A stretch of DNA of 64,000 nt from Candidatus Forterrea multitransposorum CG_2015-17_Forterrea_25_41. GTDB taxonomy: Archaea; Iainarchaeota; Iainarchaeia; Iainarchaeales; CSSED10-239. Under the pieces are notes generated by a model. The model was given only the letters and a program-made list of their open reading frames with translations, was not told where the DNA came from and made no database searches. Both the position numbers and the translations under genes were made by a program. The DNA is taken from the NCBI GenBank assembly GCA_009392915.1, contig CP045477.1, forward strand, positions 640,001 to 704,000. The letters are read 5' to 3'. Within the stretch, counting starts at the first letter, position 1. Each line of letters starts with the position of its first letter. Positions 16,048 to 59,135 of this stretch are shown here, piece by piece.

Positions 16048-17640
16048 TTAATTTCCTGTGTTGTTAGAAGATAAATTTGTGTATGCTTCTTCTAATTCCT
16101 GAATTTCATCTTGATAATTTAAAGATACAAGATCATATACTGTTTGAACTCCTAAAACAGGATTTAATTCAAATAATTTTCTATTAACATCTAAAGAAAT
16201 ATTTTGATCTTCAGAACATTTTAAGAAAAGTATAGGGAATATTGAAAAAACATCATTTGTAACTAAAGGTTTAATTACAAGATTTATTTTATCAGAATAT
16301 AAATATTCTTCATAAAATTCATCTGTTAAAGTTTCTTTTTCAAATTGATTACAATAAGGACAATCATAATCTGTGAAAAGAACAACTGAAACAGGTGCAT
16401 CTTCTGTACCAATTAATTTATCTGATTCTTTAATAATTGAAGAATAATCTAATATTTTATAGATACCATCAATACCACTACCTAAAGCAAGTTGAGGGAA
16501 AACATCTTCTCTTAAGATATATCCATTGTTAACAGTTTCTTCTTTAAAGATTAAATTAAAAATATCTTTATTTTCAGAACCATTAAAATCAACGGAATTA
16601 ACATCTCCTAAAACATACATTGCAGGTAATGTATTTGAACCAATAGTTTCTAAAATTTCAATTCCTAATTCAGAATCGTATTGTACATATTCAACATCTA
16701 AATCAAATAAAACAGAGAAAATAGAATTTACATTTTCAAGTAATAATTCAGAAGTTTTTAAATATTCAATAAACTCTGTATTCTTTTCAGAAATCATTTC
16801 ATTTTCTTTATCGTAAATATAATACATTTTTAATGAATCTTGAGTATATGAAAATGAAGAATTATCATAATTTAGATCTAATGACTCTACGTTTTCTACA
16901 GAATCAATAAACTCTGTAAAAACATTATAATCTTTAAAACCAGATAAATTATATCCATTTACATAGATTGTTGGAGTTGACATTACATATAATTCTTGTG
17001 CTTGTAAGAAATCATTTTGTATTACACTTACTTTTTCATAATCATATAGATTAGAATCTTTTAAAAGATAATTATTTTCTAAAAGACAAGCATCCATTTC
17101 TTCAGAATTAATATTTAAATCTGAATAACTTTCTTCTAAAATTTCTTTTTGATAAGTTCTCATATCAGTTAAAAGAGTTAAAGTTAAGTTTAATGATTTT
17201 TCTTCAAATTCTTCTGCACTCATAGTAACAGTAAAAGTATTTGAATCAATTGTATTTGTGTCAGTTCCATTTAAAGGATCATCATTTGTTTGAACAGGAG
17301 TTATAGGAATTAAAAATGCTAAAGCAATAATTAAAACTATTAAACCAGCTAAAACACCAATAATTACATAATCTCTTTTTTTAGTAGATCTCTTTTTTGA
17401 AACATCTTTATGTTTTTCGTGAGAATGAACTTCAACTTTTGGTTCGTGTTTTTCAATTTCAACTTTTTTAGGTGTTGAAACTTTTTTTGAACTCATCTTC
17501 TTTGGCATTGCCTTTTTTGAAGTAGTTGATTTTTTTTTTGCTTTGTTTTTATTAACATCTAAAACAGTATTTGTATCTTCAAAAACAACTTGTACTTTTT
17601 TTGGAGATTTAGCTTTAGATTTTTTTTTAGTTTTAGCCAA
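16048..17640 (-). CDS. membrane-anchored DsbA-like thiol-disulfide oxidoreductase with poly-Lys cytoplasmic tail
   Basis: The first ~95 aa are ~35% Lys, followed by one TM helix (YVIIGVLAGLIVLIIALAFLI). The extracytoplasmic region carries thioredoxin-fold modules, including DYDCPYCNQFEKE, a DsbA-type CPYC active site. Confidence 0.55.
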   Translation of the reverse strand: MAKTKKKSKAKSPKKVQVVFEDTNTVLDVNKNKAKKKSTTSKKAMPKKMSSKKVSTPKKVEIEKHEPKVEVHSHEKHKDVSKKRSTKKRDYVIIGVLAGLIVLIIALAFLIPITPVQTNDDPLNGTDTNTIDSNTFTVTMSAEEFEEKSLNLTLTLLTDMRTYQKEILEESYSDLNINSEEMDACLLENNYLLKDSNLYDYEKVSVIQNDFLQAQELYVMSTPTIYVNGYNLSGFKDYNVFTEFIDSVENVESLDLNYDNSSFSYTQDSLKMYYIYDKENEMISEKNTEFIEYLKTSELLLENVNSIFSVLFDLDVEYVQYDSELGIEILETIGSNTLPAMYVLGDVNSVDFNGSENKDIFNLIFKEETVNNGYILREDVFPQLALGSGIDGIYKILDYSSIIKESDKLIGTEDAPVSVVLFTDYDCPYCNQFEKETLTDEFYEEYLYSDKINLVIKPLVTNDVFSIFPILFLKCSEDQNISLDVNRKLFELNPVLGVQTVYDLVSLNYQDEIQELEEAYTNLSSNNTGN

Positions 17641-17688: not shown

Positions 17689-18702
17689 ATGTTTAAAAAG
17701 AGTACTAAAGCTTATATTCTTATGGATAAGAAAAATAAAAATACAGAAGAAATATTTAAAGATTTAAAGAAAAAACATTATGGAATTTATGGAAAACACT
17801 CTGCAGTTGAAATCTGTAGCTGGAATAAAAAAGCATTAAGAGGAGAGGGTGTTTGCTATAAAGAAAAATTTTATAATGTAGATTGTCATAGATGTGCACA
17901 AATAACCCCTACAGTTATTAATTGTCATTTTAATTGTAACTTTTGTTGGAGACCTTCAGAATATATGAAAGAATGGGAAATGAATGAAGATTTATTAGAT
18001 GATCCTAAAGATATTGTTGAAGGACTTTTTAAAGAAAGAATCAAACTTTTAACTGGGTTTAAGGGAAACCCAAAAGTTAATCAAGAAAAATATCAAGAAG
18101 GGACAATTCCAACACATGTAGCAATCTCTCTTGCTGGAGAACCTACAATTTATCCTAAAATAGGAGAAATGGTTGGATATTTAAAAAATAAAAAAATGAG
18201 AAGTATATTTATTGTAACAAACGGAATGGAAACAGATAGACTTCTTGAAATGAATAAAAATAAACAACTTCCAACACAACTTTATTTATCTATTGTTGCA
18301 TGTACAAAAGAAATGCATCAAAAAATAAACAGAACAAAAATTAAAGATAGTTGGGAAAGATTAAATAAAACTATTGATATTTATCCAACACTTAATTGTA
18401 GAAAAGTAATTAGATTTACTTTAATTAAAGGAATGAATGATTCACTTAAATATTTAGATAAATTTATTGAAATGTTTGAAAGAAGTAATACAGATTATTT
18501 AGAAATTAAATCATACATGCATTTAGGACTTTCAAGAGAAAACTTAAGTGCAGATAATATGCCTGATCATCAAGAAGTTTTAGAATTTTCAAAAGAAATT
18601 GAAAAAAGAAGTAAATTATTTAAGATTCACAATGAACAAAAAGAATCAAGAATAATTCTTTTAAAAAATAAAAATAGTAAAGTTATAGATTTTATTAAAT
18701 AG
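17689..18702 (+). CDS. radical-SAM tRNA 4-demethylwyosine synthase (Taw1/TYW1-like)
   Basis: CHFNCNFCWRP is a CxxxCxxC radical-SAM cluster motif with the CxFCW context typical of TYW1/Taw1. An extra Cys pair lies upstream (CYKEKFYNVDCHRC). Confidence 0.6.
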   Translation: MFKKSTKAYILMDKKNKNTEEIFKDLKKKHYGIYGKHSAVEICSWNKKALRGEGVCYKEKFYNVDCHRCAQITPTVINCHFNCNFCWRPSEYMKEWEMNEDLLDDPKDIVEGLFKERIKLLTGFKGNPKVNQEKYQEGTIPTHVAISLAGEPTIYPKIGEMVGYLKNKKMRSIFIVTNGMETDRLLEMNKNKQLPTQLYLSIVACTKEMHQKINRTKIKDSWERLNKTIDIYPTLNCRKVIRFTLIKGMNDSLKYLDKFIEMFERSNTDYLEIKSYMHLGLSRENLSADNMPDHQEVLEFSKEIEKRSKLFKIHNEQKESRIILLKNKNSKVIDFIK

Positions 18703-18715
18703 AGAGAAGAAAAAA

Positions 18716-19576
18716 ATGGAACTTAATACTGAACTTATAGATGTTTTAAAAACAATTAATAAAGAAAAAGTTATTTGTCTTTTAGCACCAAGCTTTGTTG
18801 TAGATTTTAAATATCCTAAAATAATTTTAGAACTTAGAAGAATTGGTTTTAATAAAATTGTTGAACTTACATATTCTGCAAAATTAATAAATAAAGAAAT
18901 ACACAAACAAATATTAGAAAATAAAAAAAAACAATATATTTGTGGAAACTGCCCTAGTGTTGTTAAATATATTGAAAATAAATATCCAGAACTTAAAAAA
19001 AATATTATGGATATAGCTTCACCTATGGTTATTATGGCAAGATTTATGAAAGAAAAATATCCTAGTCATATAATTGTTTTTGTAGGACCTTGTTTTTCAA
19101 AAAAACAAGAAGCAAAAGAAAACAAAGAAGTTGATTATGCACTTACCTTTAAAGAAATAAATGATATGTTTTTGTATGCTAAAAAAAATGGTTTTTATAA
19201 AAAACAAGAAAATGAAAATAAGCATTTTGATAAATTTTATAATGATTATACAAAGATATACCCTTTATCTGGTGCAGTTGCAGAAACCATGAATACTAGA
19301 GAAATATTAAAACCAGAAGAAATGATTATTGCAGATGGAATTAAAGAAATTGATAAGGCAATTATGAAATTTAAAGAAAATAAAAAAGTAAGATTTCTTG
19401 ACATGCTTTTCTGTACTGGAGGTTGTGTTGGAGGACCTGGCATAATTTCAACAGAAACTATTGAACAAAGAGAAGACAGAGTTATTCATTATAGAGATAA
19501 ATCAAAAAATGAAAAACTTGGAAAAAACTTTGGAAAATTTAAATATGCAGAAAACCTTAGTTTAAAGAGGAAATAA
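18716..19576 (+). CDS. minimal [FeFe]-hydrogenase-like protein (H-cluster domain only)
   Basis: Three H-cluster motifs in order: ICGNCP (L1, cf. TSCCP), VGPCFSKKQEA (L2, cf. MPCxxKKxE), FCTGGCVGGPG (L3, cf. MACxGGCxxGGGQP). The N-terminal APSFVVDF also resembles the H-domain. No N-terminal ferredoxin domains. Confidence 0.55.
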   Translation: MELNTELIDVLKTINKEKVICLLAPSFVVDFKYPKIILELRRIGFNKIVELTYSAKLINKEIHKQILENKKKQYICGNCPSVVKYIENKYPELKKNIMDIASPMVIMARFMKEKYPSHIIVFVGPCFSKKQEAKENKEVDYALTFKEINDMFLYAKKNGFYKKQENENKHFDKFYNDYTKIYPLSGAVAETMNTREILKPEEMIIADGIKEIDKAIMKFKENKKVRFLDMLFCTGGCVGGPGIISTETIEQREDRVIHYRDKSKNEKLGKNFGKFKYAENLSLKRK

Positions 19577-19579: not shown

Positions 19580-19999
19580 TTAAATAGTTAAAGAAAAAAT
19601 AACAGGAGTCTTTGGTTGTTCAGAAATAAATTTTTTTAAAGCAACTTTTAAAAGATTTAAAGTTAAATAAGCACATCTTACTCTTGTTTGTAAAACTCCA
19701 TCTAAATTTTCAATAATTGATTCTGGTTTTAAATTTATAATTTCATCTATTTTTTTATTTAAGGAAAGCTCGGTTGCAATACAGCCCCCTGCTTTTGAAA
19801 TTACACAACCAGAATGAACAAATGAAATATTTTTAACTATCTTTTTGTCTTTTGAGAATTTAACATAAATTGTGACTTTATCACTGCACCCAGAATTATT
19901 ACCTTCTATTTTTATATCAAAAGGCTTTAATACACCATAATTAACTGGGTTTGAATAATAATCTAAAATTATTTGACTAGGGATATAATCATCACTCAT
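19580..19999 (-). CDS. Fe-S cluster scaffold SufU/IscU-like (NifU N-terminal domain)
   Basis: Three conserved Cys (GCSDKV, HSGCVIS, RVRCAYL) in IscU/SufU spacing. Last gene of the suf operon. Confidence 0.75.
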   Translation of the reverse strand: MSDDYIPSQIILDYYSNPVNYGVLKPFDIKIEGNNSGCSDKVTIYVKFSKDKKIVKNISFVHSGCVISKAGGCIATELSLNKKIDEIINLKPESIIENLDGVLQTRVRCAYLTLNLLKVALKKFISEQPKTPVIFSLTI

Positions 20000-20871
20000 A
20001 ATTTATCTTTTATTTTTTTCTCAATATAATTAATTATTTTTTCAGGATAGAAAGAAATATTTGCTTTTAAAAAAGAAGAAACCATTAAGTTATAAGCATT
20101 TTTTTTAGATAAAGATCTTGAAGATAAATAAAATAATTGTTCATCAGTTACATGTTCAACTGTTGCAGCATGAGTTGCTTTAACATTTTTTGGAACTATT
20201 TCAAGCATTGGGACACTAATAGATCTAGAGGTATCTGAAAGAAGCATACTATTTGTTTCAAGATATGCTTTTGAAAAATCACCAGATTTTAAAATGTTAA
20301 TCATTCCATCATATCTTGAAAAAGATTTATTTTTTAATACATTTTTAATTGTTGTATTAGAAATAGTTTCTTTGTAAAGATGATTATTTCTTATATTTAT
20401 ATATGCTTTTTCAGATTTAGATAAAAGTAAAACATCATTTTGATTTAATTGAGAATCTTTTTTTATAAAAGTTTCTTGATTATATTTTAAATTATTTAAA
20501 TCAAAATAAAGATTTGAAATGTAAATAATAGACTTATCTAAAATAAAATTATTATCATAACTAAAATCATTAACTTTAAAATTTCTTATAAGATTTAAAG
20601 ACTTAGTATTTTGAAAATAATAAATAATATTTTTATGTTTTAAATTTTTAAAATCAGAAATTTCAAATAAATTTTTATTAGAAATTTTATTAAAAATTAT
20701 TAAAGAATTATTTTTAATAGAAGAAATATTAAAACTTGAAAAATCTTTAATAGAATCATCTATTAAATAGACATCACTATAATTAGATAGATTAAGTTTA
20801 TCTAAAGTATTTAGAATACTTTTAAAAATTTGTTTTAATTTATAATTATTTAAATTAATTTTTAGAAACAT
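19996..20871 (-). CDS. sufD: Fe-S cluster assembly protein SufD
   Basis: The C-terminus (HAATVEHVTDEQLFYLSSRSL) is paralogous to the SufB C-terminus. Immediately follows SufB. Confidence 0.7.
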   Translation of the reverse strand: MFLKINLNNYKLKQIFKSILNTLDKLNLSNYSDVYLIDDSIKDFSSFNISSIKNNSLIIFNKISNKNLFEISDFKNLKHKNIIYYFQNTKSLNLIRNFKVNDFSYDNNFILDKSIIYISNLYFDLNNLKYNQETFIKKDSQLNQNDVLLLSKSEKAYINIRNNHLYKETISNTTIKNVLKNKSFSRYDGMINILKSGDFSKAYLETNSMLLSDTSRSISVPMLEIVPKNVKATHAATVEHVTDEQLFYLSSRSLSKKNAYNLMVSSFLKANISFYPEKIINYIEKKIKDKL

Positions 20872-20877
20872 ATAAAT

Positions 20878-22323
20878 CTATCCTACAGAATTTTCAAACT
20901 CCATTTCAATTAATCTATTAAGTTCAACTGCATACTCTAAAGGAATTTGTTTTGAAAATTCACTTATAAAACCTAAAATGATTAAAGTAATTGCTTTAGA
21001 TTCATCAATACCTCTTGACATTAAATAAAATAATTGTTCTTCACCTATTCTTCCGACAGTTGCTTCATGAGAAACTTCTGCAGTAGGTTCATCAACAACT
21101 ATTACAGGATAAGTATCAGTCTTACTTATTGAATCAATTAAAATTGCATCACATCTAACATTAGATTTAACATTTTTAAGACCCTTATCTATTCTTACAA
21201 GCCCTCTATATGCTGATTCACCACCATCTTTTGAAATAGATTTTGAAACAATTGTTCCGGTGGTATTATTTGCTTGATGAACAATTTTTGCACCTGCATC
21301 TTGTTTTTGATTTTTTGAAGCAATTGCAATAGATAATACTTCTCCTCTAGAATTATCTCCTTTTAAATAAATTGCAGGATATTTCATTGTTAGTCTTGAA
21401 CCTAAATTACCATCTACCCATTCAACACTTGCATTTTTATAAGCAAAAGCTCTTTTTGTAACTAAATTATAAATATTATTTGCCCAATTTTGAATTGTAG
21501 TGTATCTTATACTAGCACCTTCTAAAGCAATAACTTCAACAACAGCTGCATGCAATGATTGAGTGGAAAATCTTGGAGCTGTACATCCTTCGACATAATG
21601 GATTTTACTACCTTCATCTGCAATTATTAAAGTTCTCTCAAATTGACCCATATTTGAAGAATTAATTCTAAAATATGCTTGAAGAGGAGTATCAACTTTA
21701 ACACCTTTAGGAACATAAACAAAAGAACCTCCTGACCAAACAGCAGAATTAAGAGAAGAAAATTTATTATCATCAATTGGAATTACAGATCCAAAATATT
21801 TTTTTACAAGTTCAGGATATTTTTTTAAACCTTCATCCATGGATAGAAAAACAACACCTTTTTCTTCAAATTCTTTTTTTGTTTTATGATAAATTACTTC
21901 AGAATCATATTGTGCACCAACACCTGCAAGAAAATCTCTTTCAGCTTTTGGAACCCCTATTCTATCAAAAGTTTTTTTAACATCTTTTGGAACATCTTTC
22001 CAATTTGTTTTTTCAGAATCTCCAACTGATGCAAAATAAGTTATATTTTTAAAATCAATTTCTTCAAGTGGCATTATTCCCCAAGAAGGCAATTTTTGTT
22101 TTATAAATGTTTTATAAGCTTTTAATCTAAAATCAAGCATCCATTTAGGTTCTTTTTTTATTTTTGAAATATTTTTTATAACAGTTTCACTTAACCCTTT
22201 ATCAAACTTAATTTTATAATCTTTTGTAGAATATGAAAAGTCATATTTCTTTATTTTTGTAGCTTTCTTAGCTTTTTTTAGAGAAGAATCTTTTACTCTT
22301 CCATCTATTTTATTTCTATTCAT
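20878..22323 (-). CDS. sufB: Fe-S cluster assembly protein SufB
   Basis: 481 aa; conserved SufB core (...HEATVGRIGEEQLFYLMSRGI...). Confidence 0.9.
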   Translation of the reverse strand: MNRNKIDGRVKDSSLKKAKKATKIKKYDFSYSTKDYKIKFDKGLSETVIKNISKIKKEPKWMLDFRLKAYKTFIKQKLPSWGIMPLEEIDFKNITYFASVGDSEKTNWKDVPKDVKKTFDRIGVPKAERDFLAGVGAQYDSEVIYHKTKKEFEEKGVVFLSMDEGLKKYPELVKKYFGSVIPIDDNKFSSLNSAVWSGGSFVYVPKGVKVDTPLQAYFRINSSNMGQFERTLIIADEGSKIHYVEGCTAPRFSTQSLHAAVVEVIALEGASIRYTTIQNWANNIYNLVTKRAFAYKNASVEWVDGNLGSRLTMKYPAIYLKGDNSRGEVLSIAIASKNQKQDAGAKIVHQANNTTGTIVSKSISKDGGESAYRGLVRIDKGLKNVKSNVRCDAILIDSISKTDTYPVIVVDEPTAEVSHEATVGRIGEEQLFYLMSRGIDESKAITLIILGFISEFSKQIPLEYAVELNRLIEMEFENSVG

Positions 22324-22330
22324 AATTTAT

Positions 22331-23098
22331 CTATTTAGACTTTTTTTTATAGTCTTCAATTATTTTTGTAAAACCATTTTTTTCAATATAGTTTGCAAAA
22401 GAACTATCTCCGCTTTTTATAATTTTTCCTTCATACATTACATGTACAAAATCTGGTTTTAAAAAATCAAGTATTTTTTTATAGTGTGTAATTACAATTG
22501 CAGAAAATTCTTTATTTTCTTTTTTTAAATTATTTATAGAATTACAAACAAGCTTTAAAGAATCAATATCAAGACCAGAATCAGTTTCATCTAAAATTGC
22601 AAGTTTAGGTTTTAATAAATTAAGTTGTAAAATTTCAGCACGTTTTTTTTCTCCACCAGAAAAACCAACATTTAAATCTCTAGATAAAAAATTTTCTGGC
22701 ATGTTTAAAAGAGAAATTCTTTCTTTAACTAAAGTATTAAACTTTAATGGAGAAATTCTTTCTTGATGAGTTGAAGAAAAAGAATTTTTTAAAAAAGAAA
22801 AATAATTAAGACCTTGAATCTCTAAAGGAGATTGAAAAGATAAAAATATTCCTTCTCTTGCTCTCTTGTCAACAGATAATTTTAATAAATCTTTTTCTAA
22901 AAATTTTATTTTTCCAGAAGATATTCTATACTTAGGATGACCCATAATAGAGTATGCAAGAGTTGATTTTCCAGAACCATTTGGCCCCATAATTGCATGA
23001 ATCTCTTGATTTTTTACATCTAAGTTAAAGTTATTTAAAATTTGTTTCTCTTCAACAGAAACTGATAAATTTTTTATAGAAATTAAATTTTTAGCCAT
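22331..23098 (-). CDS. sufC: Fe-S cluster assembly ATPase SufC
   Basis: ABC ATPase with Walker A GPNGSGKST, signature FSGGEKKR, Walker B ILDETDSGLD, and the SufC-specific C-terminus. Confidence 0.9.
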   Translation of the reverse strand: MAKNLISIKNLSVSVEEKQILNNFNLDVKNQEIHAIMGPNGSGKSTLAYSIMGHPKYRISSGKIKFLEKDLLKLSVDKRAREGIFLSFQSPLEIQGLNYFSFLKNSFSSTHQERISPLKFNTLVKERISLLNMPENFLSRDLNVGFSGGEKKRAEILQLNLLKPKLAILDETDSGLDIDSLKLVCNSINNLKKENKEFSAIVITHYKKILDFLKPDFVHVMYEGKIIKSGDSSFANYIEKNGFTKIIEDYKKKSK

Positions 23099-24722: not shown

Positions 24723-26873
24723 ATGCTTGAAACAAATATTAAATGGCTTAAAGAAATTTCAGATCATGAAGTCCTAGAAGTAGGATATAAAGCACATATT
24801 TTATCAGAAATTTCAAAAGCAAATATTCCACTTCCAAGAGGTTTTGTAGTTAATTATAAAAATTTTTTTAATTTTGTACAAAAAGATAATTTAAAAGAAA
24901 AAATAAATGAAATTTTAAAAACTATTGATTATAACAACAAAGAAGATATTGAAAAAAAATCAATAGAAATAAGAACACTTTTTTTAAAACAAAAATTTGA
25001 TGAAGACTTTATTTCTGATGTCTTAAAAATGTATACAAAGCTTGGAGAATCAAAAGTTGGATTTATGAATACCAAGGTAGATGAATATACAGCTATAAGA
25101 GCATCTGTTTCTTCTGAAGAATATCCTTTAAAAGAACTTGATCCAATAGAAAGACATACAGGTTTTTTAAATATTAAAGGAAGAGAAGAAGTATTAAACA
25201 GTATTAAAGAATGTTGGGCAGATCTTTATGCTCCTGAAATCTTAGAATATAAATATAAAAAAGGTTTTGAAGAAAATAAAATACATCTTTCAATAATTAT
25301 TCAAAAAATGATACCTGGTAAAAAATCAGGAATAATGCTAACTTCTAAAAATGATTCAAAAGATACAATTGTAATTGAAGCAATACATGGTTTTGGAGGA
25401 AAAAGCCTAATTACAGAAGTTACTCCTGATCACTATGAGATTAATAAAAAAACACTAACTACAATTAAAAAAACACAATCAAATCAAGAATGGATGCTTA
25501 AAAGAATTGTAGGAAAAACTACAAAAACAAATGTAGATGTTAAAGATAGTGAAAAACAAAAATTAAATCAAAGAGATCTAAATGAACTTGCAAATATAGG
25601 AAATAAACTTGAAATGATCTATGGAACTTCTTTAGAAGTTAATTGGGTAATGGATGAAAACGAAGAATTTCTAATTGTTAGTGTAAACCCAATTGATCCT
25701 AATCTTAAAAAAATTAAAAAAAAGAAAAAAATAGATATTACTTCTTATCAAGAAAAACTAGATAGTTATAAAAAAAATTTACTTTTAGAAGGTATTGGAG
25801 TTTCAAACGGACTTTCAATTGGTATTGTGAAAATAATTAATAATAAAAAAGATCTTTTAAGAGTTGATGAGAATACAATTTTTGTAACTAAAATGACAAC
25901 TCTTGAAATGTCACAAACATTAAGAAAAGCAAAAGGAATTGTTACAGATGCTGGAAGTACAATCTGTCATGCAGCATTAATTGCTAAAAAATATGATGTA
26001 CCTTGTGTAGTACACACAGAAAGATCAACAGAAATATTAAGAGATGGACAAGCTGTTTTAGTTAATGGATTTAATGGTAAAGTGTATAGTGTTATAGGGT
26101 ACGTTGCACCACCAATTACAAAAACAGTTACAGAAACTAGAAGAGAAAATGAAGTATCTATTGAAAAAGCACAAAATAAAGATCCAGAATATCCAAAGAC
26201 AATTACAAAAATATTTATTAAAATAAATAATTTAGAAGAAGTTAAAAGTATTAACTTACCTGATATTGATGGTATAGTTTTAAGCATAGATTCTTTATTT
26301 ACAAATTATGAAAAAGGAAGTATGCTTGAAAACATTAATTTATTAGTTCCAACAATTAAAAATAAACTTTTAGAAATTACTAAAATATTTGAAGGAAAAG
26401 AAATTTTCTATAAAGTAAATACACATAAACAAAATTTAATTACTGAAAATGTTTCAAGTTATGAAATTGAAGCTATTATGGAACTTAAAAGTAGAATTAA
26501 CATTTTACTTGAAAATATTAAATCTGCAGATGAAATAATTCCTGTTAAAGAAAATACAGAATCAAAAATAGGAGTTTTAGTTGAAAATATTAAAGAAAAT
26601 ATAATTTCTGAATATATTTCAAGAGGTATAGAAAATATAACCTTTAATTTAGAAGAAATTGATTTTGTAAAAGTAAAAGAAGTTATTAAAATATGTAAAG
26701 AAAATAAAATTATGAGAATTGCAGAAATTAATTCTAAAAATACAATTTCAAATATTAAAACATATATTGATTCAAATATCAATGGAGTAATTATTAATAA
26801 AGAACAATTAGAATATAAAGATACAATTTATAAACAAGAAAGAGATCTCTTAAAGAATCTTCTTTCTGTTTAG
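24723..26873 (+). CDS. PEP-utilizing enzyme family protein (PEP synthase / pyruvate phosphate dikinase-like)
   Basis: N-terminal PPDK_N ATP-grasp domain (VGYKAHILSEISKANIPLPRGFVV) and phospho-His mobile domain (GIVTDAGSTICHAALIAKKYDVPCVV). The C-terminal ~250 aa are divergent from the canonical PEP/pyruvate TIM barrel. Confidence 0.55.
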   Translation: MLETNIKWLKEISDHEVLEVGYKAHILSEISKANIPLPRGFVVNYKNFFNFVQKDNLKEKINEILKTIDYNNKEDIEKKSIEIRTLFLKQKFDEDFISDVLKMYTKLGESKVGFMNTKVDEYTAIRASVSSEEYPLKELDPIERHTGFLNIKGREEVLNSIKECWADLYAPEILEYKYKKGFEENKIHLSIIIQKMIPGKKSGIMLTSKNDSKDTIVIEAIHGFGGKSLITEVTPDHYEINKKTLTTIKKTQSNQEWMLKRIVGKTTKTNVDVKDSEKQKLNQRDLNELANIGNKLEMIYGTSLEVNWVMDENEEFLIVSVNPIDPNLKKIKKKKKIDITSYQEKLDSYKKNLLLEGIGVSNGLSIGIVKIINNKKDLLRVDENTIFVTKMTTLEMSQTLRKAKGIVTDAGSTICHAALIAKKYDVPCVVHTERSTEILRDGQAVLVNGFNGKVYSVIGYVAPPITKTVTETRRENEVSIEKAQNKDPEYPKTITKIFIKINNLEEVKSINLPDIDGIVLSIDSLFTNYEKGSMLENINLLVPTIKNKLLEITKIFEGKEIFYKVNTHKQNLITENVSSYEIEAIMELKSRINILLENIKSADEIIPVKENTESKIGVLVENIKENIISEYISRGIENITFNLEEIDFVKVKEVIKICKENKIMRIAEINSKNTISNIKTYIDSNINGVIINKEQLEYKDTIYKQERDLLKNLLSV

Positions 26874-33140: not shown

Positions 33141-33695
33141 ATGGACACAATAAACATATCTATTTATGGTAGAGGGGGGCAAGGTGCTAAAACCTGTGCT
33201 CAAATCATTGCAGAAGCAGGAGTTAAGGCAGGGAAAAATGTACAAGCTTTTCCTGAGTATGGACCTGAAAGAAGAGGTGCTCCTGTAAGATCTTATGTAA
33301 GACTTTCAAATAAACCTATTAGGACACATGAGCCTATCTTAAACCCTGATGTTGTTATTGTAATTGATGGTAATTTAGCAAATGTTTTAAAAGAAATTAA
33401 AGAATATTCTTCTCCTTTAATTATTAATGGAAATGCAGAGATTAAAGGTTTTAAAAGTAAAGAAATATTTATAGTTGATGGGACTAAAATATCTTTAGAA
33501 GAGATTAAGATTAATAATCCAAATATTGTTTTAATAGGTTCTCTTTTAAAAATCTTAGAAGATAAAAAAATTAATTTTATAAAATATAAAGATGTTGAAA
33601 AAGTTATTAAAGAAACATTTACTAAAAAAAGAAAAGAACATTTTATTATGCCAAACCTTAATTGTCTTAAGAGAGGATATAATTTTAAAAAATAA
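33141..33695 (+). CDS. porG: pyruvate:ferredoxin oxidoreductase gamma subunit
   Basis: YGRGGQGAKTCAQIIAEAGVKAGKNVQAFPEYGPERRGAPV is the POR gamma signature. Confidence 0.85.
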   Translation: MDTINISIYGRGGQGAKTCAQIIAEAGVKAGKNVQAFPEYGPERRGAPVRSYVRLSNKPIRTHEPILNPDVVIVIDGNLANVLKEIKEYSSPLIINGNAEIKGFKSKEIFIVDGTKISLEEIKINNPNIVLIGSLLKILEDKKINFIKYKDVEKVIKETFTKKRKEHFIMPNLNCLKRGYNFKK

Positions 33696-33711
33696 AAAAT
33701 AAGAAATAACT

Positions 33712-33999
33712 ATGACAAAAGAAAATAAAAAAATTGGTGGAGTTTTAGAAGGTGGAACTTCTAAACAATACAGTACTGGTAACTGGAGACATAAAAAACC
33801 AATCTGGGATTCTAAAAGATGTGTTCAGTGTATGTTGTGCTATGTTTATTGCCCTGATAATTGTATTTTAGTAAAAAAAAATAAAGATGGTAAGCTTGTA
33901 AGAACAGAAACAGACTTAGAGTTTTGTAAAGGTTGTGGAATCTGTGAAAAAGTATGCCCTGTTAAATGTATAAAGATGGTTGAAGAAGACAAAGAATGA
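33712..33999 (+). CDS. porD: pyruvate:ferredoxin oxidoreductase delta subunit (2x[4Fe-4S] ferredoxin)
   Basis: Two CxxCxxCxxxCP motifs (CVQCMLCYVYCP, CKGCGICEKVCP). Confidence 0.85.
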   Translation: MTKENKKIGGVLEGGTSKQYSTGNWRHKKPIWDSKRCVQCMLCYVYCPDNCILVKKNKDGKLVRTETDLEFCKGCGICEKVCPVKCIKMVEEDKE

Positions 34000-34577
34000 T
34001 TCTAATGAACTTTATTGAAGAATTAAATCAAATAGAAACAATCATCAAAGTAAAAGAAAGCAAAAGAAAAAGTATTGTTGAAGAAAGATATGAAAGTTCT
34101 GCAGAACACACTTTTGGATGTATTCTTTTAGCACAATATTTTTTAAAAAAAATACCAGATAAATTAGATGAATTAAAAATATTAAAATTATTAAGTTACC
34201 ATGATATTCAAAATATCTATTTTGAAGATATAAATATAACAGATGAAAATTGGAAAAATAAAAAAAATCTTGAAAAAATAGCACATGAAAAAACAATTAA
34301 GACAATTCCAAAAGAAATATCTGAAGAATATAAGACACACTACATAGAATTTGAAGAATTAAAAACAAAAGAATCCAAATTTGCAAAAGCCATTGATGTT
34401 TTAGAACCAGTAATACACGCTAGCAATCATAAAGAACATTGGATAAGAGGAAACTGGAAGGAATCAGATTTAAGAAAACATAAAGAAAAATATTTAACCG
34501 AATTTCCAATATTAATGGAATTCTTTAATGAATTTGTAAATTATGCAAAAGAAAATAATTATTTTATAAAAGAATAG
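33996..34577 (+). CDS. HD-domain phosphohydrolase (YfbR-like 5'-deoxynucleotidase family)
   Basis: SSAEHTFGCILLA (H), LLSYHDIQNIYFEDI (HD), ...FAKAIDVLEPVIHA (D) in YfbR-like spacing. Overlaps porD by 4 nt and ends 13 nt before porA. Confidence 0.6.
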   Translation: MILMNFIEELNQIETIIKVKESKRKSIVEERYESSAEHTFGCILLAQYFLKKIPDKLDELKILKLLSYHDIQNIYFEDINITDENWKNKKNLEKIAHEKTIKTIPKEISEEYKTHYIEFEELKTKESKFAKAIDVLEPVIHASNHKEHWIRGNWKESDLRKHKEKYLTEFPILMEFFNEFVNYAKENNYFIKE

Positions 34578-34589
34578 ATGTGAAAAAAA

Positions 34590-35750
34590 ATGAAAACTAA
34601 AAAAACAGCACTTAACGGCGGAGAAGCAATCTCCTATGCAATAAAACAAGTAGATGTTGATGTGTTTGCAATGTATCCTATAACACCACAAACACCAATC
34701 ATTGAAAGTTATGCAAACCATCATAATAATGGAGAAGTTACAACTGAATTAATCTTAGTTGAATCAGAACATTCTGCTCTTTCAACAGTTATTGGTTCAG
34801 CTGCATCAGGTGCCAGAAGTGTAACAGCAACAGCCTCTCAAGGTTTAATGTACATGTATGAAGTTTTATCAGTTGCATCTGGTTTAAGACTTCCAATTGT
34901 TATGCCTGTTGCAAATAGAGCTATCTCTGCACCTATAAACATACATTGTGATCATAGTGACGCTATGGCTTGTCTTGATCAAGGATGGATGATGGCTTTT
35001 TGTGAAAGTGCACAAGAAGCATATGACATGACAATCTTTGCTTTTAAACTTGCAGAAAAGGTTTCTCTTCCAATCATGGTGTGTATAGATGGTTTTTATA
35101 CTTCACATAATTTAGAAAATTTAGAAACATATGAAGACAAAGTTGTTAAAAAATTTGTAGGAGATTACAAAGGACCTTATAATCTTTTAGATACAAAGAA
35201 ACCAATCTCTATTGGTGCACTTTCTCTTCCAAATACATTTTTTGAAATAAAGGTGGAATTGTTTAAAGCATTTGATGATGTTGAAAAAGATTTTTTAGAA
35301 GTTTCAAAAGATTTTGAAAAGACTTTTGGAAAAAAAATTAATTTCTTTGAAGAGTATAAAGTAAAAGATGCTGAAGTGGTTATTGTTGTAATGTCCTCAA
35401 CTGCTCAGTCAACAAAAAATGTTATTGATAAATTAAGAAAAGAAAGAAAGAAGGTTGGGCTTTTAAGACCTATTCTTTTTAGACCTTTTGTTTATTCTAA
35501 ATATCTTAATACTTTAAAAAAAGCAAAAGAAATAATTGTTCTTGATAGAGCTGAAGGCCCAGGATCCTCTTCTCCTCTTTATAAAGAAATTAAACTTTCT
35601 GTTTGCGATAATGATAAAAAAATAAATGTAACCTCTTATGTCTTTGGACTTGGAGGAAGAGATCTTTTTGAAAAAGATATTGAAGAACTTCTTAATGGTT
35701 TTATAAAAGGAAAACCAAATAAAGAAAAATATTTAGGGCTTAAAAAATAA
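34590..35750 (+). CDS. porA: pyruvate:ferredoxin oxidoreductase alpha subunit
   Basis: 386 aa; conserved POR alpha N-terminus (ALNGGEAISYAIKQVDVDVFAMYPITPQT). Confidence 0.85.
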   Translation: MKTKKTALNGGEAISYAIKQVDVDVFAMYPITPQTPIIESYANHHNNGEVTTELILVESEHSALSTVIGSAASGARSVTATASQGLMYMYEVLSVASGLRLPIVMPVANRAISAPINIHCDHSDAMACLDQGWMMAFCESAQEAYDMTIFAFKLAEKVSLPIMVCIDGFYTSHNLENLETYEDKVVKKFVGDYKGPYNLLDTKKPISIGALSLPNTFFEIKVELFKAFDDVEKDFLEVSKDFEKTFGKKINFFEEYKVKDAEVVIVVMSSTAQSTKNVIDKLRKERKKVGLLRPILFRPFVYSKYLNTLKKAKEIIVLDRAEGPGSSSPLYKEIKLSVCDNDKKINVTSYVFGLGGRDLFEKDIEELLNGFIKGKPNKEKYLGLKK

Positions 35751-35762
35751 AGTGAAAAATTT

Positions 35763-37796
35763 ATGAACTATATTGAACTTGCAAGTAAAATTGAAGAAAG
35801 AAAAGCTATTGTTCCTGGACATAGAACTTGTCCTGGGTGTCCTATAGCCATTATCTTAAGAACAGCATATGCTGCAACTGATAAAAAAATAATAACATCA
35901 TCTGCTACATCCTGTGCAGAAGTTACAACAACAATTTATCCTTACACCTCATGGAATGAACCTTGGATTCATTCTGTTTTTGCAAATGCTGCAGCAACCA
36001 TATCTGGTGTTGAAACTGCTTATAGAGCTTTAAAGAAAAAAGGAAAGATAAAAGAAGAAATTAAATTTATGGCTTTTGCTGGAGATGGTGGAGCTTTTGA
36101 TATTGGACTTCAGAGCCTTTCAGGAGCTCTTGAAAGAGGACATGATTTTGTTTTTGTTTGTTACGATAACGAAGGTTACCAAAACTGTTTATCAATAGAT
36201 TCATTAATAATGACAGAAACAGGTCTTAAAAAAATAACTGAAATTAAAAAAGGAGAGAAAGTCTGGGCTTTTGATCAAAATAAACATTTGCCGGTACTAA
36301 AAGAATGTACAGGGGTCTTTAATAATGGAAGAAAAAGAGTATACGAAATAGAAACTATACATCAAAATATAAAAGCAACATCAAACCACCCATTCTTAAC
36401 TTTAAAAAGAAACGGTAGAGGAAAAGAAAACGAGCTTATCTGGAAAACAGTTTCTCAATTAAAGGTAAATGATGAAATTGTAACTATGAGAAAACTTTAT
36501 GATAAAGGAAAAGCATATGAATTTAATAAAATAAAGCTAACTAAAAAAGGCGATTATAAAGTAAATATTATTAATGATGTTAAGCTTCCAGAAAAATCTA
36601 CAAAAGAATTAATGTTATGGCTAGGTTTATATGTTGGAGATGGATGGATTAGAGAAGAAAGAGGAGAAATTGGATTTGCTCTTCCAGAAAATACAGAAGA
36701 GAGAAAAATACTTCTTAAGATCCATAAGAAAATATTTGGACAAGAAAATAAATCTAAAGATAAATATTACATATACTATAATTCTGTAAATATTTCAAAA
36801 TTTATTAATTCCTTAGGGTTTATGCAAGGTGCTAAAAATAAAACAATACCATCTTGGGTTTTTACTTTACCAATAGATCAAAAAGAAGAATTTGTAAAAG
36901 GTTTATTAATGTCTGATGGATATATTTATAAAAAGAAAAAAGATAGTTGTAGATATTTATCAGCAAGCAAAGAATTAATTAAAAGATTAAGACTTTTACT
37001 TCAAACAATGGATTACAGAGTAGGAAAAATAACTATTCAGAAAAAACCAAAAGGAACTTTTGTAGTTTATAGAGAAATGTTAAATGATGGAGAATACTAT
37101 AGTATTTGTTTTAGTAAAAAAGACAAATGGGATGTTAAAAAATACCCTAACCAATACAAATATCAAAATTATTTTATTGAAAATGAATATTTTGAAACAA
37201 GAAAAATAAAAAATATTATTCCTAGAGGAATTGAACAAACATTAGATTTAAGAGTTGATGGAGAACACAACTTTATTGCAGATGGAATTGTTGTTCATAA
37301 CACAGGAGCACAACGATCCTCTGCAACACCTTATGGAGCTTCAACAACTACCACTCCTGGAGAGAAAAAAGAATTTCAAAAAGATCTTGCAAGGATAGCT
37401 ATTGCTCATAAAATACCATATGTTGCAACTGCAAACCCAGGAAATCTTTTAGACATGCATGAAAAGTTTAGAAAGGCTTTTGAAAAGAAAGGGCCAGCTG
37501 TAATCATTGTTTATGCAGCATGCCCTACAAACATGAAGGCTCCTGAAGACTTAACTATTGATATTTCAAAGCTTGCAACTGAAACTAATTTTTGGCCACT
37601 TTATGAAGTTGAAGATGGAAAATATAAAGTAAACTATAAGCCTGCAAATAAAAAACCTATTGAAGAATTTTTAAAAATGCAAACTAAGTTTAAAGAAGTT
37701 TTAAAAGATAAAAATGAAATTAAAAAAATACAACAAGAAATAGATGATGATTTTAAAGAACTTCTAAAAATGGAAGAAGCTTTTCCTTTAAAATAA
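35763..37796 (+). CDS. porB: pyruvate:ferredoxin oxidoreductase beta subunit, interrupted by an in-frame intein
   Basis: Exteins give a normal ~305-aa PorB. N-extein carries the TPP-binding CPGC / GDGG; the conserved YxNTGxQxSxxTPxGAxTxTTP motif is split as ...YDNEGYQN|[intein]|TGAQRSSATPYGASTTTTPGE. Confidence 0.85.
   Translation: MNYIELASKIEERKAIVPGHRTCPGCPIAIILRTAYAATDKKIITSSATSCAEVTTTIYPYTSWNEPWIHSVFANAAATISGVETAYRALKKKGKIKEEIKFMAFAGDGGAFDIGLQSLSGALERGHDFVFVCYDNEGYQNCLSIDSLIMTETGLKKITEIKKGEKVWAFDQNKHLPVLKECTGVFNNGRKRVYEIETIHQNIKATSNHPFLTLKRNGRGKENELIWKTVSQLKVNDEIVTMRKLYDKGKAYEFNKIKLTKKGDYKVNIINDVKLPEKSTKELMLWLGLYVGDGWIREERGEIGFALPENTEERKILLKIHKKIFGQENKSKDKYYIYYNSVNISKFINSLGFMQGAKNKTIPSWVFTLPIDQKEEFVKGLLMSDGYIYKKKKDSCRYLSASKELIKRLRLLLQTMDYRVGKITIQKKPKGTFVVYREMLNDGEYYSICFSKKDKWDVKKYPNQYKYQNYFIENEYFETRKIKNIIPRGIEQTLDLRVDGEHNFIADGIVVHNTGAQRSSATPYGASTTTTPGEKKEFQKDLARIAIAHKIPYVATANPGNLLDMHEKFRKAFEKKGPAVIIVYAACPTNMKAPEDLTIDISKLATETNFWPLYEVEDGKYKVNYKPANKKPIEEFLKMQTKFKEVLKDKNEIKKIQQEIDDDFKELLKMEEAFPLK
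36186..37301 (+). mobile_element. intein with LAGLIDADG homing endonuclease (372 aa) in porB
   Basis: Begins CLSIDSL (block A Cys1) and has block B ATSNHPF (TxxH). Two LAGLIDADG motifs (LWLGLYVGDGWI, FVKGLLMSDGYI). Ends ...NFIADGIVVHN with +1 Thr. Boundaries were mapped codon by codon. Confidence 0.8.
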
Positions 37797-37849
37797 AAAT
37801 ATAATGGCGGTTATTATAACCACTATTATAAATCATTTTAAAAAAAGAA

Positions 37850-39784
37850 TTAAATCTTTTTAGATTTAATTTTTTCAATAACCTCTGGATTGTAAAGTGT
37901 TGAAAGGTCTCCATAATCTTCAGAGTCATAAGCAATTGCTCTTAAGATTCTTCTTATGATCTTACCACTACTTGTCTTTGGAAGAGAATCTACAAATTGT
38001 ATTTTATCAGGTTTTGCAATTGGCCCGATTTCCTTTGCAACATGCTCTCTTAATTCTTTCACTAAATCTTCAGAAGGATTTATTCCTGCTCTTAAGATTA
38101 CAAAAGCATAAAGAGCTTGACCTTTAATTTCATGTGGGAAAGGAACAACTGCTGCTTCACCAACATTTTTATTTGAAACTAAGGCAGATTCAATTTCTGC
38201 AGAACCAAGTCTATGTCCTGAAACTTTAATTACATCATCCATTCTTCCAATTATGAAAAAATAACCATCTTCATCTATTTTTCCTCTATCTCCACAGAAA
38301 TAATAACCTGGGTATTTAGAAATATAGATATCTAAATATTTTTGATGTTCTCCATAAATTGTTCTCATCATTCCTGGCCATGGTTTTTTAATAACCACAG
38401 AACCTGGTTCATTAACATCTGCTTTAGAACCATCCTCTCTTAAGACATCAGCATCAATACCAAAGAAAGGTTTTGTTGCAAAGCCTGGTTTTAAAGGAAA
38501 GGCACCTGGAAATGGTGCTATTAAAAATCCACCAGATTCTGTTTGCCACCAAGTATCAACTATTGGACAATTACTTTTTCCAATGTTTTCATAATACCAA
38601 ACCCATGCTTCAGGGTTTATAGGCTCACCAACTGAACCTAAAAGTTTTAAGGATGAAAGATCATGTTTTTTTACAGGGTCAGTTCCATATCTCATTAATG
38701 ATCTTATAACTGTTGGAGCTGTATAAAAAATATTTACTTTATGTTTTTCAATAATTCTCCAGTATGTTTCATTATCTGGAAAGGTTGGTATTCCTTCATA
38801 CATTAAAACTGTTGCAGCATTTGCAAGAGGACCATAAACTAAATAAGAGTGCCCTGTGATCCAGCCTATGTCTGCTGTACACCAATAAACATCATCTTGA
38901 TGATAATTAAAAATATATTTAAAAGTCTCCTTTGTGTATACTAAATAACCTGCATTTGTGTGAAGTGTACCTTTTGGTTTTTCAACAGTTCCTGAATTAA
39001 ATAAAATAAATAAAGGATCTTCAGAATCCATTTCCTCTGGTTCGCAAGTGTCCAAGATATCTAGAGATTTTACTTCTTCTTGATAGATATATTCATTTTC
39101 TTTTAAAGTTAAAGGAATATCTATATTTTTAACAACTAATATTTTTTCAATATCTTTAATATCCTCAATTGCTTTTGAAACTTCTTCTTTAAAGTTTATT
39201 TTCTTTCCTGCTCTTAGAGAACCATCAGCTGTGATAAGCATTTTTGATTTTGCAAACTCAATTCTTTCTTTTGTTGTTTGTGTGCTATATCCTGCAAAAA
39301 CAACAGAATGTATTGCACCTATTCTTGCACATGCTAAAAGAGAGATTAGAAATTCTGGTATCATTGGCATATAGATAGAAACACGATCACCTTTCTTTAT
39401 ACCATGTTTCTTTAAAACATTTGCAAATCTTGAAACTTCTAAATGTAATTGTTTATAAGTATATTTTTTTACATTACTTTCTTCTTCCCCTTGAAAGATT
39501 AAAGCTATTTTTTCTGCATTCTTTTCTAAATGCTTATCTAAGCAATTATAAGAAACATTTAGTTTTCCATTCTTAAACCAAGAATAAAGATATTTTTCTT
39601 TATCTTCCCACTCAAAGACAGAAGTATATGGTTTAAACCAAGTAATATCTTTTGCTACTTCTTTCCAAAACTCTTCTGGGTTTTTAATAGAAGCATCATA
39701 TATCTTTTGATATTCTTCCATTGATTTAATATATGCTTTTTCTTGAAAAGCTTTTGAAGGGTAATATTTTTTTTCATCACTCAT
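37850..39784 (-). CDS. acs: acetyl-CoA synthetase (AMP-forming)
   Basis: 644 aa from MSDEKKYYPS. AMP-binding signature (TSGTTGKPKG-like YTSGSTGKPKG variant: FNSGTVEKPKG) and the conserved Acs C-terminal Lys region (SGKIIRRIL). Confidence 0.9.
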   Translation of the reverse strand: MSDEKKYYPSKAFQEKAYIKSMEEYQKIYDASIKNPEEFWKEVAKDITWFKPYTSVFEWEDKEKYLYSWFKNGKLNVSYNCLDKHLEKNAEKIALIFQGEEESNVKKYTYKQLHLEVSRFANVLKKHGIKKGDRVSIYMPMIPEFLISLLACARIGAIHSVVFAGYSTQTTKERIEFAKSKMLITADGSLRAGKKINFKEEVSKAIEDIKDIEKILVVKNIDIPLTLKENEYIYQEEVKSLDILDTCEPEEMDSEDPLFILFNSGTVEKPKGTLHTNAGYLVYTKETFKYIFNYHQDDVYWCTADIGWITGHSYLVYGPLANAATVLMYEGIPTFPDNETYWRIIEKHKVNIFYTAPTVIRSLMRYGTDPVKKHDLSSLKLLGSVGEPINPEAWVWYYENIGKSNCPIVDTWWQTESGGFLIAPFPGAFPLKPGFATKPFFGIDADVLREDGSKADVNEPGSVVIKKPWPGMMRTIYGEHQKYLDIYISKYPGYYFCGDRGKIDEDGYFFIIGRMDDVIKVSGHRLGSAEIESALVSNKNVGEAAVVPFPHEIKGQALYAFVILRAGINPSEDLVKELREHVAKEIGPIAKPDKIQFVDSLPKTSSGKIIRRILRAIAYDSEDYGDLSTLYNPEVIEKIKSKKI

Positions 39785-39853
39785 AAATAATCTCATTTAT
39801 TATATTTCTATTTGTACAGATAAAAGAGTAGATGAAAAGATATTTATATGTTT

Positions 39854-56530: not shown

Positions 56531-56600
56531 TAATTATCAACTTTTTTTTGTTCTATCATTATATTTAAGTTCCCAAAACCTTTTTAAAGGTAAATTGGGA

Positions 56601-56622
56601 GGGAGAGGATGTGGCCGAGAAA
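56601..56622. promoter_or_regulatory. GC-rich conserved upstream element (GGGAGAGGATGTGGCCGAGAAA), ~82 nt upstream of the mcm start
   Basis: Same TGGCCGAGAAA 11-mer and G-run as upstream of radA, in the same orientation and at the same spacing relative to the downstream gene. Confidence 0.3.
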
Positions 56623-56980
56623 GAAAAAAAAAAATTTTTTCTAAAAGATAATTTATTTTTCCTTTAACTTTTCACAAACCTCTTTTTTATTGATAACTAT
56701 TATATGTTTATAAAAAAGCAGAATTTTATATAAAGTAATTATACAGTAAAATGATTATAATTAGATTTAGTTTAGAAAACTAAGAAAATTGTTAAAAATA
56801 GATATAAATTGAACTAAATATAGTTAATTTATTTAAGTTAACGAAAAGTTTATAAAAGAAAAATTAAAAAAGAAAAGAAATAACCCTCTTTTTCTCTTTT
56901 AAAAAAGAAATAAAGGTTATTTTTTATTTTAAGATTGTATTTTTAAGTTTTAAACAAATAAGGATTCTAATGTTTTAAAA

Positions 56981-57172
56981 TTAAACTTTTTGAACATTAA
57001 TTGCTTTTTGACCTTTTTCATCTTCTGTAACTTCAAAAGTAACAGGCATACCATCTTTAATCATTTGTCCGTCAGCAACGCCTGAACTATGAACAAAGTA
57101 GTCTTTACCATCTTCTCCAGTTATAAAACCGAAATTTTTTTTAAAATTATAGAATTTAACAGTACCATTCAT
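56981..57172 (-). CDS. cold-shock protein (CspA family, bacterial type)
   Basis: MNGTVKFYNFKKNFGFITGEDGKDYFVHSS carries the RNP1-like KGFGFI core; 63 aa. Confidence 0.8.
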   Translation of the reverse strand: MNGTVKFYNFKKNFGFITGEDGKDYFVHSSGVADGQMIKDGMPVTFEVTEDEKGQKAINVQKV

Positions 57173-57546
57173 ATTTTTTTCACTCTTTTTTTATATTTTT
57201 TTTTTATTTAAAACAATATCTTAGATAACCAAGTTTTCTTTATAAAAATAAGTTATTTAAAAGAATCATTAAAAATAAAGATTTTTAATTCATAGTATAA
57301 AAATTTTATTAAAAATAGTTAATTATTGTTTTATTGTCAATTGTAGTATAAGGATTTGATAATAAATAGTTTTTATTTTTATTAAAACATTTTCCATTGA
57401 ATTTATTTTTTATTTTTATTTTCTTTAACAACACATTTTATTTTTTCAACTTTGTTATTAATCATTTATCATTTTATAATGTAATTATAGATTAGAAAAG
57501 TATATAAAGGGTTTTATTTTGTATTATATAAAAACTGTGATTATAT

Positions 57547-58323: not shown

Positions 58324-58330
58324 GATAAAT

Positions 58331-59134: not shown

Positions 59135-59135
59135 A

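Follow-up and report, generated by a model that had tools for sequence, protein, structure and literature searches.

A probable group E ('ultraminimal') [FeFe] hydrogenase gene in a 64-kb window of Candidatus Forterrea multitransposorum

The 64-kb stretch of Candidatus Forterrea multitransposorum DNA analyzed here (referred to as the window throughout) carries on its plus strand an open reading frame (ORF), hydA, whose product, HydA, consists of an [FeFe] hydrogenase H-domain only. We estimate at roughly 80% the probability that this ORF encodes a group E ('ultraminimal') [FeFe] hydrogenase involved in ferredoxin-dependent H2 evolution, an assignment that is based on the match of HydA to the Pfam family Fe_hyd_lg_C, on its predicted fold, on the mapping of its H-cluster ligands to those of the Clostridium pasteurianum hydrogenase CpI, on its relatives, and on the published biochemistry of the group E enzyme Fm. 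A preliminary description, made from the letters of the sequence, had considered ferredoxin-dependent H2 evolution plausible for this ORF, and the profile, structure, and residue mapping reported here as well as the biochemistry of Fm (PMC11216029) support that reading.

The hydA gene and its product

The gene and the motifs that characterize its product are located as follows:

18716..19576, plus strand: hydA, probable group E ('ultraminimal') [FeFe] hydrogenase (Pfam PF02906, AlphaFold2 model, Foldseek)
18785..18793, plus strand: A24-P25-S26 loop (family conservation)
18941..18955, plus strand: L1 motif C76-G77-N78-C79-P80 (CpI alignment, family conservation)
19088..19111, plus strand: L2 motif P125-C126-F-S-K129-K-Q-E132 (CpI alignment, family conservation)
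19409..19441, plus strand: L3 motif F232-C233-T-G-G-C237-V-G-G-P-G (CpI alignment, family conservation)

The hydA ORF starts with ATG, ends with TAA, and encodes 286 amino acids with a computed mass of 33.46 kDa, a pI of 9.3, and six cysteines in total (residues 21, 76, 79, 126, 233, and 237); the identical protein sequence has been deposited four times as 'hypothetical protein [archaeon]'. HydA matches the Pfam profile Fe_hyd_lg_C (PF02906) with an E-value of 2.9e-44 and a score of 152 bits (cutoff 22.1), far above chance for the [FeFe] hydrogenase family, and the match is full-length, covering residues 18-241 and profile positions 2-245 of 245. A Pfam scan identified no second or accessory domain in HydA. 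With regard to NCBIfam, the best model was TIGR04105 (monomeric [FeFe] hydrogenase), for which HydA scored 163.6 bits (cutoff 450); the match was confined to the C-terminal half of the model (positions 209-460 of 462), and the score falls under the cutoff because nothing in HydA corresponds to the ferredoxin-like N-terminal half.

An AlphaFold2 model of HydA, computed from an alignment of 47 sequences, reached a mean pLDDT of 94.2 and a pTM of 0.92. When this model was compared to the PDB with Foldseek, the 50 best listed matches were all [FeFe] hydrogenases (probability 1.0), with query-normalized TM-scores of 0.69-0.77 at approximately 20% sequence identity. The reading of the ORF as an [FeFe] hydrogenase-like protein in the preliminary description was thus borne out by both a significant full-length profile match and a confident model, and its statement that ferredoxin-like accessory domains are missing agrees with the single Pfam domain and the six cysteines.

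Residues of the H-cluster and of the proton pathway

Residues were mapped from HMMER alignments to PDB entries, obtained in sequence and profile searches (E 1e-12 to 1e-20), with CpI and HydABC-type hydrogenases as references, and conservation was taken from the best 120 of 778 relatives that were found at E <= 1e-5 in a search of 5.8 billion proteins. Nearly all of these 120 relatives are 283-299 amino acids long, and their consensus sequences are I-C-x-N-C-P for L1, F-[VI]-G-P-C-x-x-K-K-x-E-A for L2, and C-x-G-G-C-x-G-G-P-G for L3. The three H-cluster motifs noted in the preliminary description (CGNCP, PCFSKKQE, and FCTGGCVGGPG) are present as written, and the four cysteine ligands proposed there align to H-cluster positions of CpI, with C79 corresponding to C300, C126 to C355, C233 to C499, and C237 to C503; the last of these is, in CpI, the cysteine that bridges to the di-iron subcluster. 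All four are invariant among the relatives.

In L1, where C79 is kept in 120/120 relatives, the position of the proton-relay cysteine of CpI (C299) is occupied by N78, which is asparagine in every one of the 120, in line with the replacement proposed earlier; C76, an extra cysteine at the position of CpI T297, is near-invariant (118/120). L2 supplies K129 and E132, which correspond to CpI K358 and E361 and are both invariant. Both second-sphere methionines of CpI are absent from HydA, M353 being replaced by G124 and M497 by L231. Upstream of these motifs, A24-P25-S26 is invariant in the 47 aligned sequences (47/47) and is found in 117-120 of the 120 relatives; we take this loop to be the equivalent of CpI A230-P231-S232, based on motif order and the start of the Pfam domain and not on alignment. 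In CpI, this loop is in contact with a cyanide bound at the di-iron site.

With regard to the proton pathway of group A enzymes, CpI R286 and S319 correspond to Q65 and M98 in HydA, and CpI E279-E282 sit in a four-residue insertion that is absent from HydA and its relatives. Gap placement in the helix that precedes L1 is uncertain; no family position in the stretch before L1 holds a conserved acidic residue, whatever the register, and the relatives have no conserved acidic or hydroxyl residue at the equivalents of E279, E282, S319, and R286. Judged from the alignments, the canonical group A proton pathway is therefore missing from HydA whichever register holds.

Relatives of HydA in archaea and bacteria

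The closest relatives of HydA lie in metagenome-assembled genomes of Iainarchaeota (Diapherotrites). The closest loci in species-representative genomes encode proteins with 96, 84, 78, and 77% identity to HydA and are labeled Candidatus ainarchaeum, Candidatus Iainarchaeum, uncultured archaeon, and Candidatus Diapherotrites, respectively. An exhaustive profile search over 1.84 billion cluster representatives yielded 3,696 matches at E <= 1e-3 and 278 at E <= 1e-30, among which minimal forms (250-310 amino acids) make up approximately 25-30 clusters, followed by multidomain proteins of 560-750 amino acids. Among the non-minimal relatives, the nearest ones (28-35% identity) are sensory, group C-type proteins in which Fer4, the H-domain, and PF04060 are joined to either a sigma-54 activator or a histidine kinase, compatible with the sister relation published for groups E and C. 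A neighbor-joining tree, built without support values or a reference set for groups A-G, placed the minimal forms in one clade beside these sensory-type fusions.

Deeper minimal lineages carry an L1 of the form I-[SA]-[SA]-[AVPT]-C-P, without the asparagine, and the Cys-x-Asn version of L1 hence marks a subclade that holds HydA. A distant minimal H-domain protein of 281 amino acids (38% identity) is encoded at positions 143-985 of a Woesearchaeota-labeled contig (locus L055 in our numbering of genome loci); its L1 reads ISTVCP, with neither the asparagine nor the extra cysteine, and its gene has neither a radical S-adenosylmethionine (radical-SAM) gene nor genes for pyruvate/2-oxoacid:ferredoxin oxidoreductase (POR) as neighbors. 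Judged from the L1 sequence of this protein, Cys-x-Asn-Cys-Pro is specific to the subclade of Iainarchaeota and of bacteria of the Candidate Phyla Radiation (CPR). As a separate observation, one database protein from outside the window (P0121; 4,122 amino acids) showed 14 tandem matches to the H-domain profile and repeats the motifs GLMPCTVKKTE and CEGGCMNGAG; such a sequence may represent either a giant protein of repeats or an artifact of assembly or gene calling.

Approximately 35 of the 80 genome loci with homologues belong to CPR bacteria, i.e., SR1/Absconditabacteria and Gracilibacteria (within L017-L054, L056, and L059; e.g., L051, in the complete genome CP006913.1 at 690390-703217). 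The minimal H-domain proteins of these bacteria are approximately 290 amino acids long and 44-50% identical to HydA, and in the rough neighbor-joining tree they are interleaved with the archaeal sequences. Database translations of the CPR homologues show tryptophan at invariant glycines (e.g., G235 and G236 appear as W in 37/120 relatives), which we read as UGA codons for glycine (genetic code 25) that were mistranslated as tryptophan. Minimal H-domain proteins are thus, on the evidence of these sequences, not limited to DPANN archaea and also occur in CPR bacteria with genetic code 25; no published report of members from Absconditabacteria or Gracilibacteria was found in the literature searched.

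Gene neighborhood

The genes on either side of hydA are as follows:

17689..18702, plus strand: taw1/TYW1, radical-SAM 4-demethylwyosine synthase (TIGR03972, 354.6 bits, cutoff 317.95)
19580-19999, minus strand: SufU/NifU_N scaffold (Pfam, NCBIfam)
19996-20871, minus strand: SufD-like protein (Pfam, NCBIfam)
20878-22323, minus strand: SufB (Pfam, NCBIfam)
22331-23098, minus strand: SufC (Pfam, NCBIfam)

TYW1 ends 13 nt before the start of hydA (intergenic sequence AGAGAAGAAAAAA), and the two genes are probably co-transcribed. At 20/20 Iainarchaeota loci (the window together with L003-L016, L019, L032, L042, L043, and L057), TYW1 precedes hydA on the same strand; it lies directly upstream at a distance of 0-49 nt in 19 of the 20, while in the remaining locus (L057) an ORF separates the two genes, which are 774 nt apart. 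These loci share the order ArgRS, thioredoxin-like protein, TYW1, hydA. In the window, the thioredoxin-like protein is encoded at 16048-17640 on the minus strand and comprises 530 amino acids; its N-terminus is rich in lysine, a hydrophobic segment is present, and a thioredoxin-like domain (Thioredoxin_4) is found at the C-terminus. Its gene is the next one upstream of TYW1-hydA, in divergent orientation, in 18/20 Iainarchaeota loci. The radical-SAM gene upstream of hydA was also considered as a hidden HydE or HydG and was rejected as such, as it scores above the TYW1 equivalog cutoff.

The SUF operon (19580..23098, minus strand) is convergent with hydA, the stops of hydA and SufU being 3 nt apart, and only in the window and at the four loci most closely related to it (L003-L006) does it come next after hydA; RadA or other genes are found at this place in the 15 other Iainarchaeota loci. 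Given the convergent orientation and a pairing restricted to close relatives, the position of the SUF operon next to hydA is incidental, and the operon does not belong to a hydrogenase unit. We thus rejected this adjacency as a functional link, and the weight that the preliminary description had placed on the SUF neighborhood is not supported.

In most CPR loci (within L017-L047, L051, L052, L056, and L059), a RimO-like radical-SAM gene lies directly beside hydA, on a side that varies between clades (upstream or downstream), and the other side is often taken by a HemW-like radical-SAM gene. These neighbors were examined as candidates for HydE or HydG and rejected; they score as RimO/MiaB-family and HemW-like proteins and have no HydE or HydG match. 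A radical-SAM neighbor is absent at L048, L050, L053, and L055. The radical-SAM neighborhood of hydA is recurrent and was apparently acquired independently in archaea and CPR bacteria. A functional tie between minimal H-domain proteins and radical-SAM enzymes is nevertheless very doubtful in our judgment, since synteny in compact genomes could explain the neighborhood. If such a tie were real, the H-domain protein may provide radical-SAM enzymes with a [4Fe-4S] cluster or with electrons of low potential that derive from H2 or ferredoxin, in organisms without flavodoxin systems; alternatively, housekeeping radical-SAM enzymes may take part in a maturation route that is independent of HydEFG.

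Metabolic context in the window

POR and acetyl-CoA synthetase genes had been noted in the same window by the preliminary description and were found at 33141-39796; together with a PEP synthase/PPDK-like gene they are located as follows:

24723-26873: PEP synthase/PPDK-like gene
33141-33695, plus strand: POR gamma
33712-33999, plus strand: POR delta, 2x[4Fe-4S] (two CxxCxxCxxxC motifs)
34590-35750, plus strand: POR alpha
35763-37796, plus strand: POR beta, binding thiamine pyrophosphate, interrupted by an intein (TPP_enzyme_C, Intein_splicing, LAGLIDADG_3)
37850..39796, minus strand: AMP-forming acetyl-CoA synthetase (Pfam ACAS_N, AMP-binding, AMP-binding_C)

POR is the likely source of reduced ferredoxin, and the AMP-forming acetyl-CoA synthetase would provide the acetate branch of a fermentation. 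The Pfam matches of the POR genes were POR, POR_N, PFOR_II, TPP_enzyme_C, Intein_splicing, and LAGLIDADG_3. The intein in POR beta was recognized by an Intein_splicing match at residues 149-513 and a LAGLIDADG_3 homing-endonuclease domain at residues 373-446. Between POR delta and POR alpha lies an HD-domain ORF (HD_3/YfbR-like 5'-deoxynucleotidase; 33996-34577, plus strand), which shares 4 nt with the end of the delta gene.

The gene content of the window is archaeal (RadA, topoisomerase VI, MCM, exosome, proteasome subunits, SBDS, a class III signal peptide protein, and TYW1), and its G+C content is 18-30%. Elsewhere in the window, an ORF at 44880-46988 (plus strand) encodes a 702-amino-acid fusion of a glutamine amidotransferase/asparagine-synthase module with a C-terminal Diphthami_syn_2 (diphthamide synthase) domain. 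At 56000-64000, G+C falls to 18-21% over genes for glycosyltransferases, methyltransferases, DUF354 proteins, and a polysaccharide flippase, and this region is probably a surface-glycan island.

Proposed function and alternative explanations

Group E, the 'ultraminimal' [FeFe] hydrogenases, was defined by Greening et al. (Cell 2024; PMC11216029) as comprising monomeric, H-domain-only enzymes with a mean of 286 residues that are encoded by the DPANN archaea Iainarchaeota, Micrarchaeota, and Nanoarchaeota, are sister to the sensory group C, and keep the ligand cysteines but have altered proton-transfer residues. In the same study, the 33-kDa enzyme Fm of Ca. Forterrea multitransposorum was expressed and found to contain 4.2 Fe per protein and one [4Fe-4S] cluster; after maturation with synthetic [2Fe]adt it showed H-cluster bands in Fourier-transform infrared spectra and produced H2, and its electrochemistry was bidirectional with a bias to proton reduction (PMC11216029). 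For group E, the only reported hydrogenase in many of its host genomes, a role in the reoxidation of ferredoxin in fermentation was proposed, and HydEFG are missing from most group E genomes, including the closed Forterrea genome (PMC11216029). The class was thus already described and biochemically characterized in 2024, and the same is very probably true of the exact protein encoded in the window; that HydA is Fm itself, or a population variant of it, we consider probable.

Under the group E assignment, C79, C126, C233, and C237 would hold the [4Fe-4S] half of the H-cluster, with C237 bridging to the di-iron subcluster, and K129 together with the A24-P25-S26 loop would hold the cyanide ligands. 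HydA is a basic protein without relay Fe-S clusters, so that reduced ferredoxin would have to dock directly at its exposed [4Fe-4S]H; POR, encoded 14 kb downstream, is the presumed partner from which that ferredoxin would come, and electrons would then reach the di-iron site through C237. As the group A proton pathway is absent, protons would need another route, and may reach the amine bridge in a non-canonical way in which the invariant Asn78 probably positions water. Protons would be reduced, which is the presumed direction in vivo, H2 would leave, and oxidized ferredoxin would return to POR, so that pyruvate would be fermented through acetyl-CoA to acetate.

Several points weigh against the assignment. 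No hydE, hydF, or hydG was found in the 64-kb window, as the preliminary description had also stated; TYW1 was the only ORF in the window with a CxxxCxxC radical-SAM motif, no window ORF combined a P-loop with the HydF Cys/His motif, and Pfam gave no further radical-SAM or HydF-like match in the 52 ORFs scanned among the 58 window ORFs of at least 120 amino acids. HydEFG are reported to be missing from the closed genome as well (PMC11216029), which weakens the case for a di-iron site assembled in vivo, and all activity recorded for Fm followed artificial maturation, carried out in E. coli lysate or on purified protein (PMC11216029). Furthermore, no free-standing ferredoxin gene was found in the window, and the proton-relay cysteine and both group A second-sphere methionines are gone, as in slow sensory hydrogenases. 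Finally, the identity of HydA with Fm is inferred from coincidences of size (33.46 kDa as compared to the 33 kDa reported), not from the sequence of Fm.

The lack of maturases in the window and in the published genome (PMC11216029) would also fit a protein that never receives a di-iron subcluster in vivo and acts instead as a Nar1-like Fe-S carrier or as a redox partner of radical-SAM enzymes, as would the position of hydA after TYW1 in Iainarchaeota and beside RimO-like or HemW-like genes in most CPR loci, and the SUF operon that adjoins it in the window. We consider such a non-catalytic [4Fe-4S] protein unlikely, given that residues of the di-iron pocket for which a cubane has no need are invariant (the A24-P25-S26 loop, K129, S102-P103, N78, and G235-G236) and that the type enzyme Fm takes up [2Fe]adt and turns over (PMC11216029); moreover, HydA lacks the N-terminal Fe-S domain of Nar1, the radical-SAM adjacency is not universal (it is missing at L048, L050, L053, and L055), and the SUF genes are convergent, with an adjacency that is not conserved. 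An H2 sensor similar to the HydS proteins of groups C and D, and not a metabolic enzyme, is suggested by the closeness of HydA to sensory-type H-domains and by the absence, as in HydS, of the proton-relay cysteine and the group A proton pathway. However, neither an output domain (PAS, kinase, sigma-54, or any other) in HydA nor a regulator gene next to hydA was found, the bias of Fm is toward proton reduction while that of TmHydS is not, and where group E is the sole reported hydrogenase of its host there would be no other to regulate (PMC11216029); a sensory role therefore appears extremely unlikely. The sensory and Nar1-like alternatives raised in the preliminary description are thus the weaker readings, with neither a signaling domain nor an N-terminal Fe-S domain to support them.

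The direction of catalysis was considered separately, as HydA could act mainly in H2 uptake and make reduced ferredoxin for POR toward pyruvate or for radical-SAM activation. This would be consistent with the bidirectional behavior of Fm on an electrode (PMC11216029), with the reduced, CO2-rich aquifer of Crystal Geyser, with the need of the radical-SAM neighbors for a low-potential donor, and with the Forterrea paper, which gives the mechanisms that reduce its ferredoxin as unknown. By contrast, Fm shows an electrochemical bias toward H+ reduction (PMC11216029), and no respiratory chain or carbon-fixation pathway that could use the electrons was found (Forterrea paper, PMC11216029), which makes a predominant role in uptake very unlikely. 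We thus favor a group E hydrogenase that functions in ferredoxin-dependent H2 evolution.

No smaller hydrogenases are known than those of group E, which are hence attractive minimal scaffolds for H2 catalysis and are reported to be the only H2 enzyme of many genome-reduced DPANN symbionts. As this significance is already in print, the locus in the window confirms rather than discovers; the CPR-bacterial homologues and the recurrent radical-SAM neighbors go beyond the published picture.

Comparison with known systems

HydA shares with Nar1/NARFL proteins the Pfam domain, the company of Fe-S assembly genes, and an organism without HydEFG. Nar1 proteins are eukaryotic, approximately 450-500 amino acids long, and carry an N-terminal ferredoxin-like cysteine cluster, and to our knowledge they do not bind a di-iron site. 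HydA, on the other hand, has no N-terminal cysteine motif of the Nar1 type (the H-domain begins at residue 18, and C21 is the sole cysteine before L1), its relatives retain the residues of the di-iron pocket, and the type enzyme Fm is active.

As compared to the group A enzymes CpI and HydA1 of Chlamydomonas reinhardtii (457 amino acids), HydA has the same fold (query TM-score of approximately 0.75), the four cysteine ligands, and the equivalents of K358 and E361. HydA1 likewise has no accessory clusters and receives electrons straight from ferredoxin. The differences from group A are a sequence identity of only approximately 20%, trimmed loops, which make HydA shorter than HydA1 by approximately 170 residues, an L1 that reads CGNCP and not TSCCP, and the loss of C299, E279, E282, S319, R286, and both active-site methionines.

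Group C proteins (TmHydS type; fusions L058-L082) resemble HydA in having glycine at the position of CpI M353 (FIGPC) and in lacking the proton-relay cysteine in L1. They differ from it in length (650-750 amino acids), in their N-terminal 2x[4Fe-4S] domain, PF04060 Fe-S motif, and output domains, and in an L1 position that varies (P, D, F, T, or A), whereas HydA and its relatives have an invariant asparagine. The signaling domains or accessory Fe-S clusters typical of groups C and D were not found in HydA, which has a single Pfam domain and TYW1 and SufU as neighbors; furthermore, TmHydS prefers H2 oxidation, unlike Fm (PMC11216029).

With regard to Fm and group E, no difference was detected in the features compared (architecture, length, mass, host, ligand and proton-transfer residues, and nearby maturases). 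HydA, like Fm, is an H-domain-only protein, with 286 amino acids as compared to a group average of 286 and a mass of 33.5 as compared to 33 kDa; both come from an Iainarchaeota/Diapherotrites groundwater host with no maturases nearby, and both keep the four ligand cysteines with altered proton-transfer residues.

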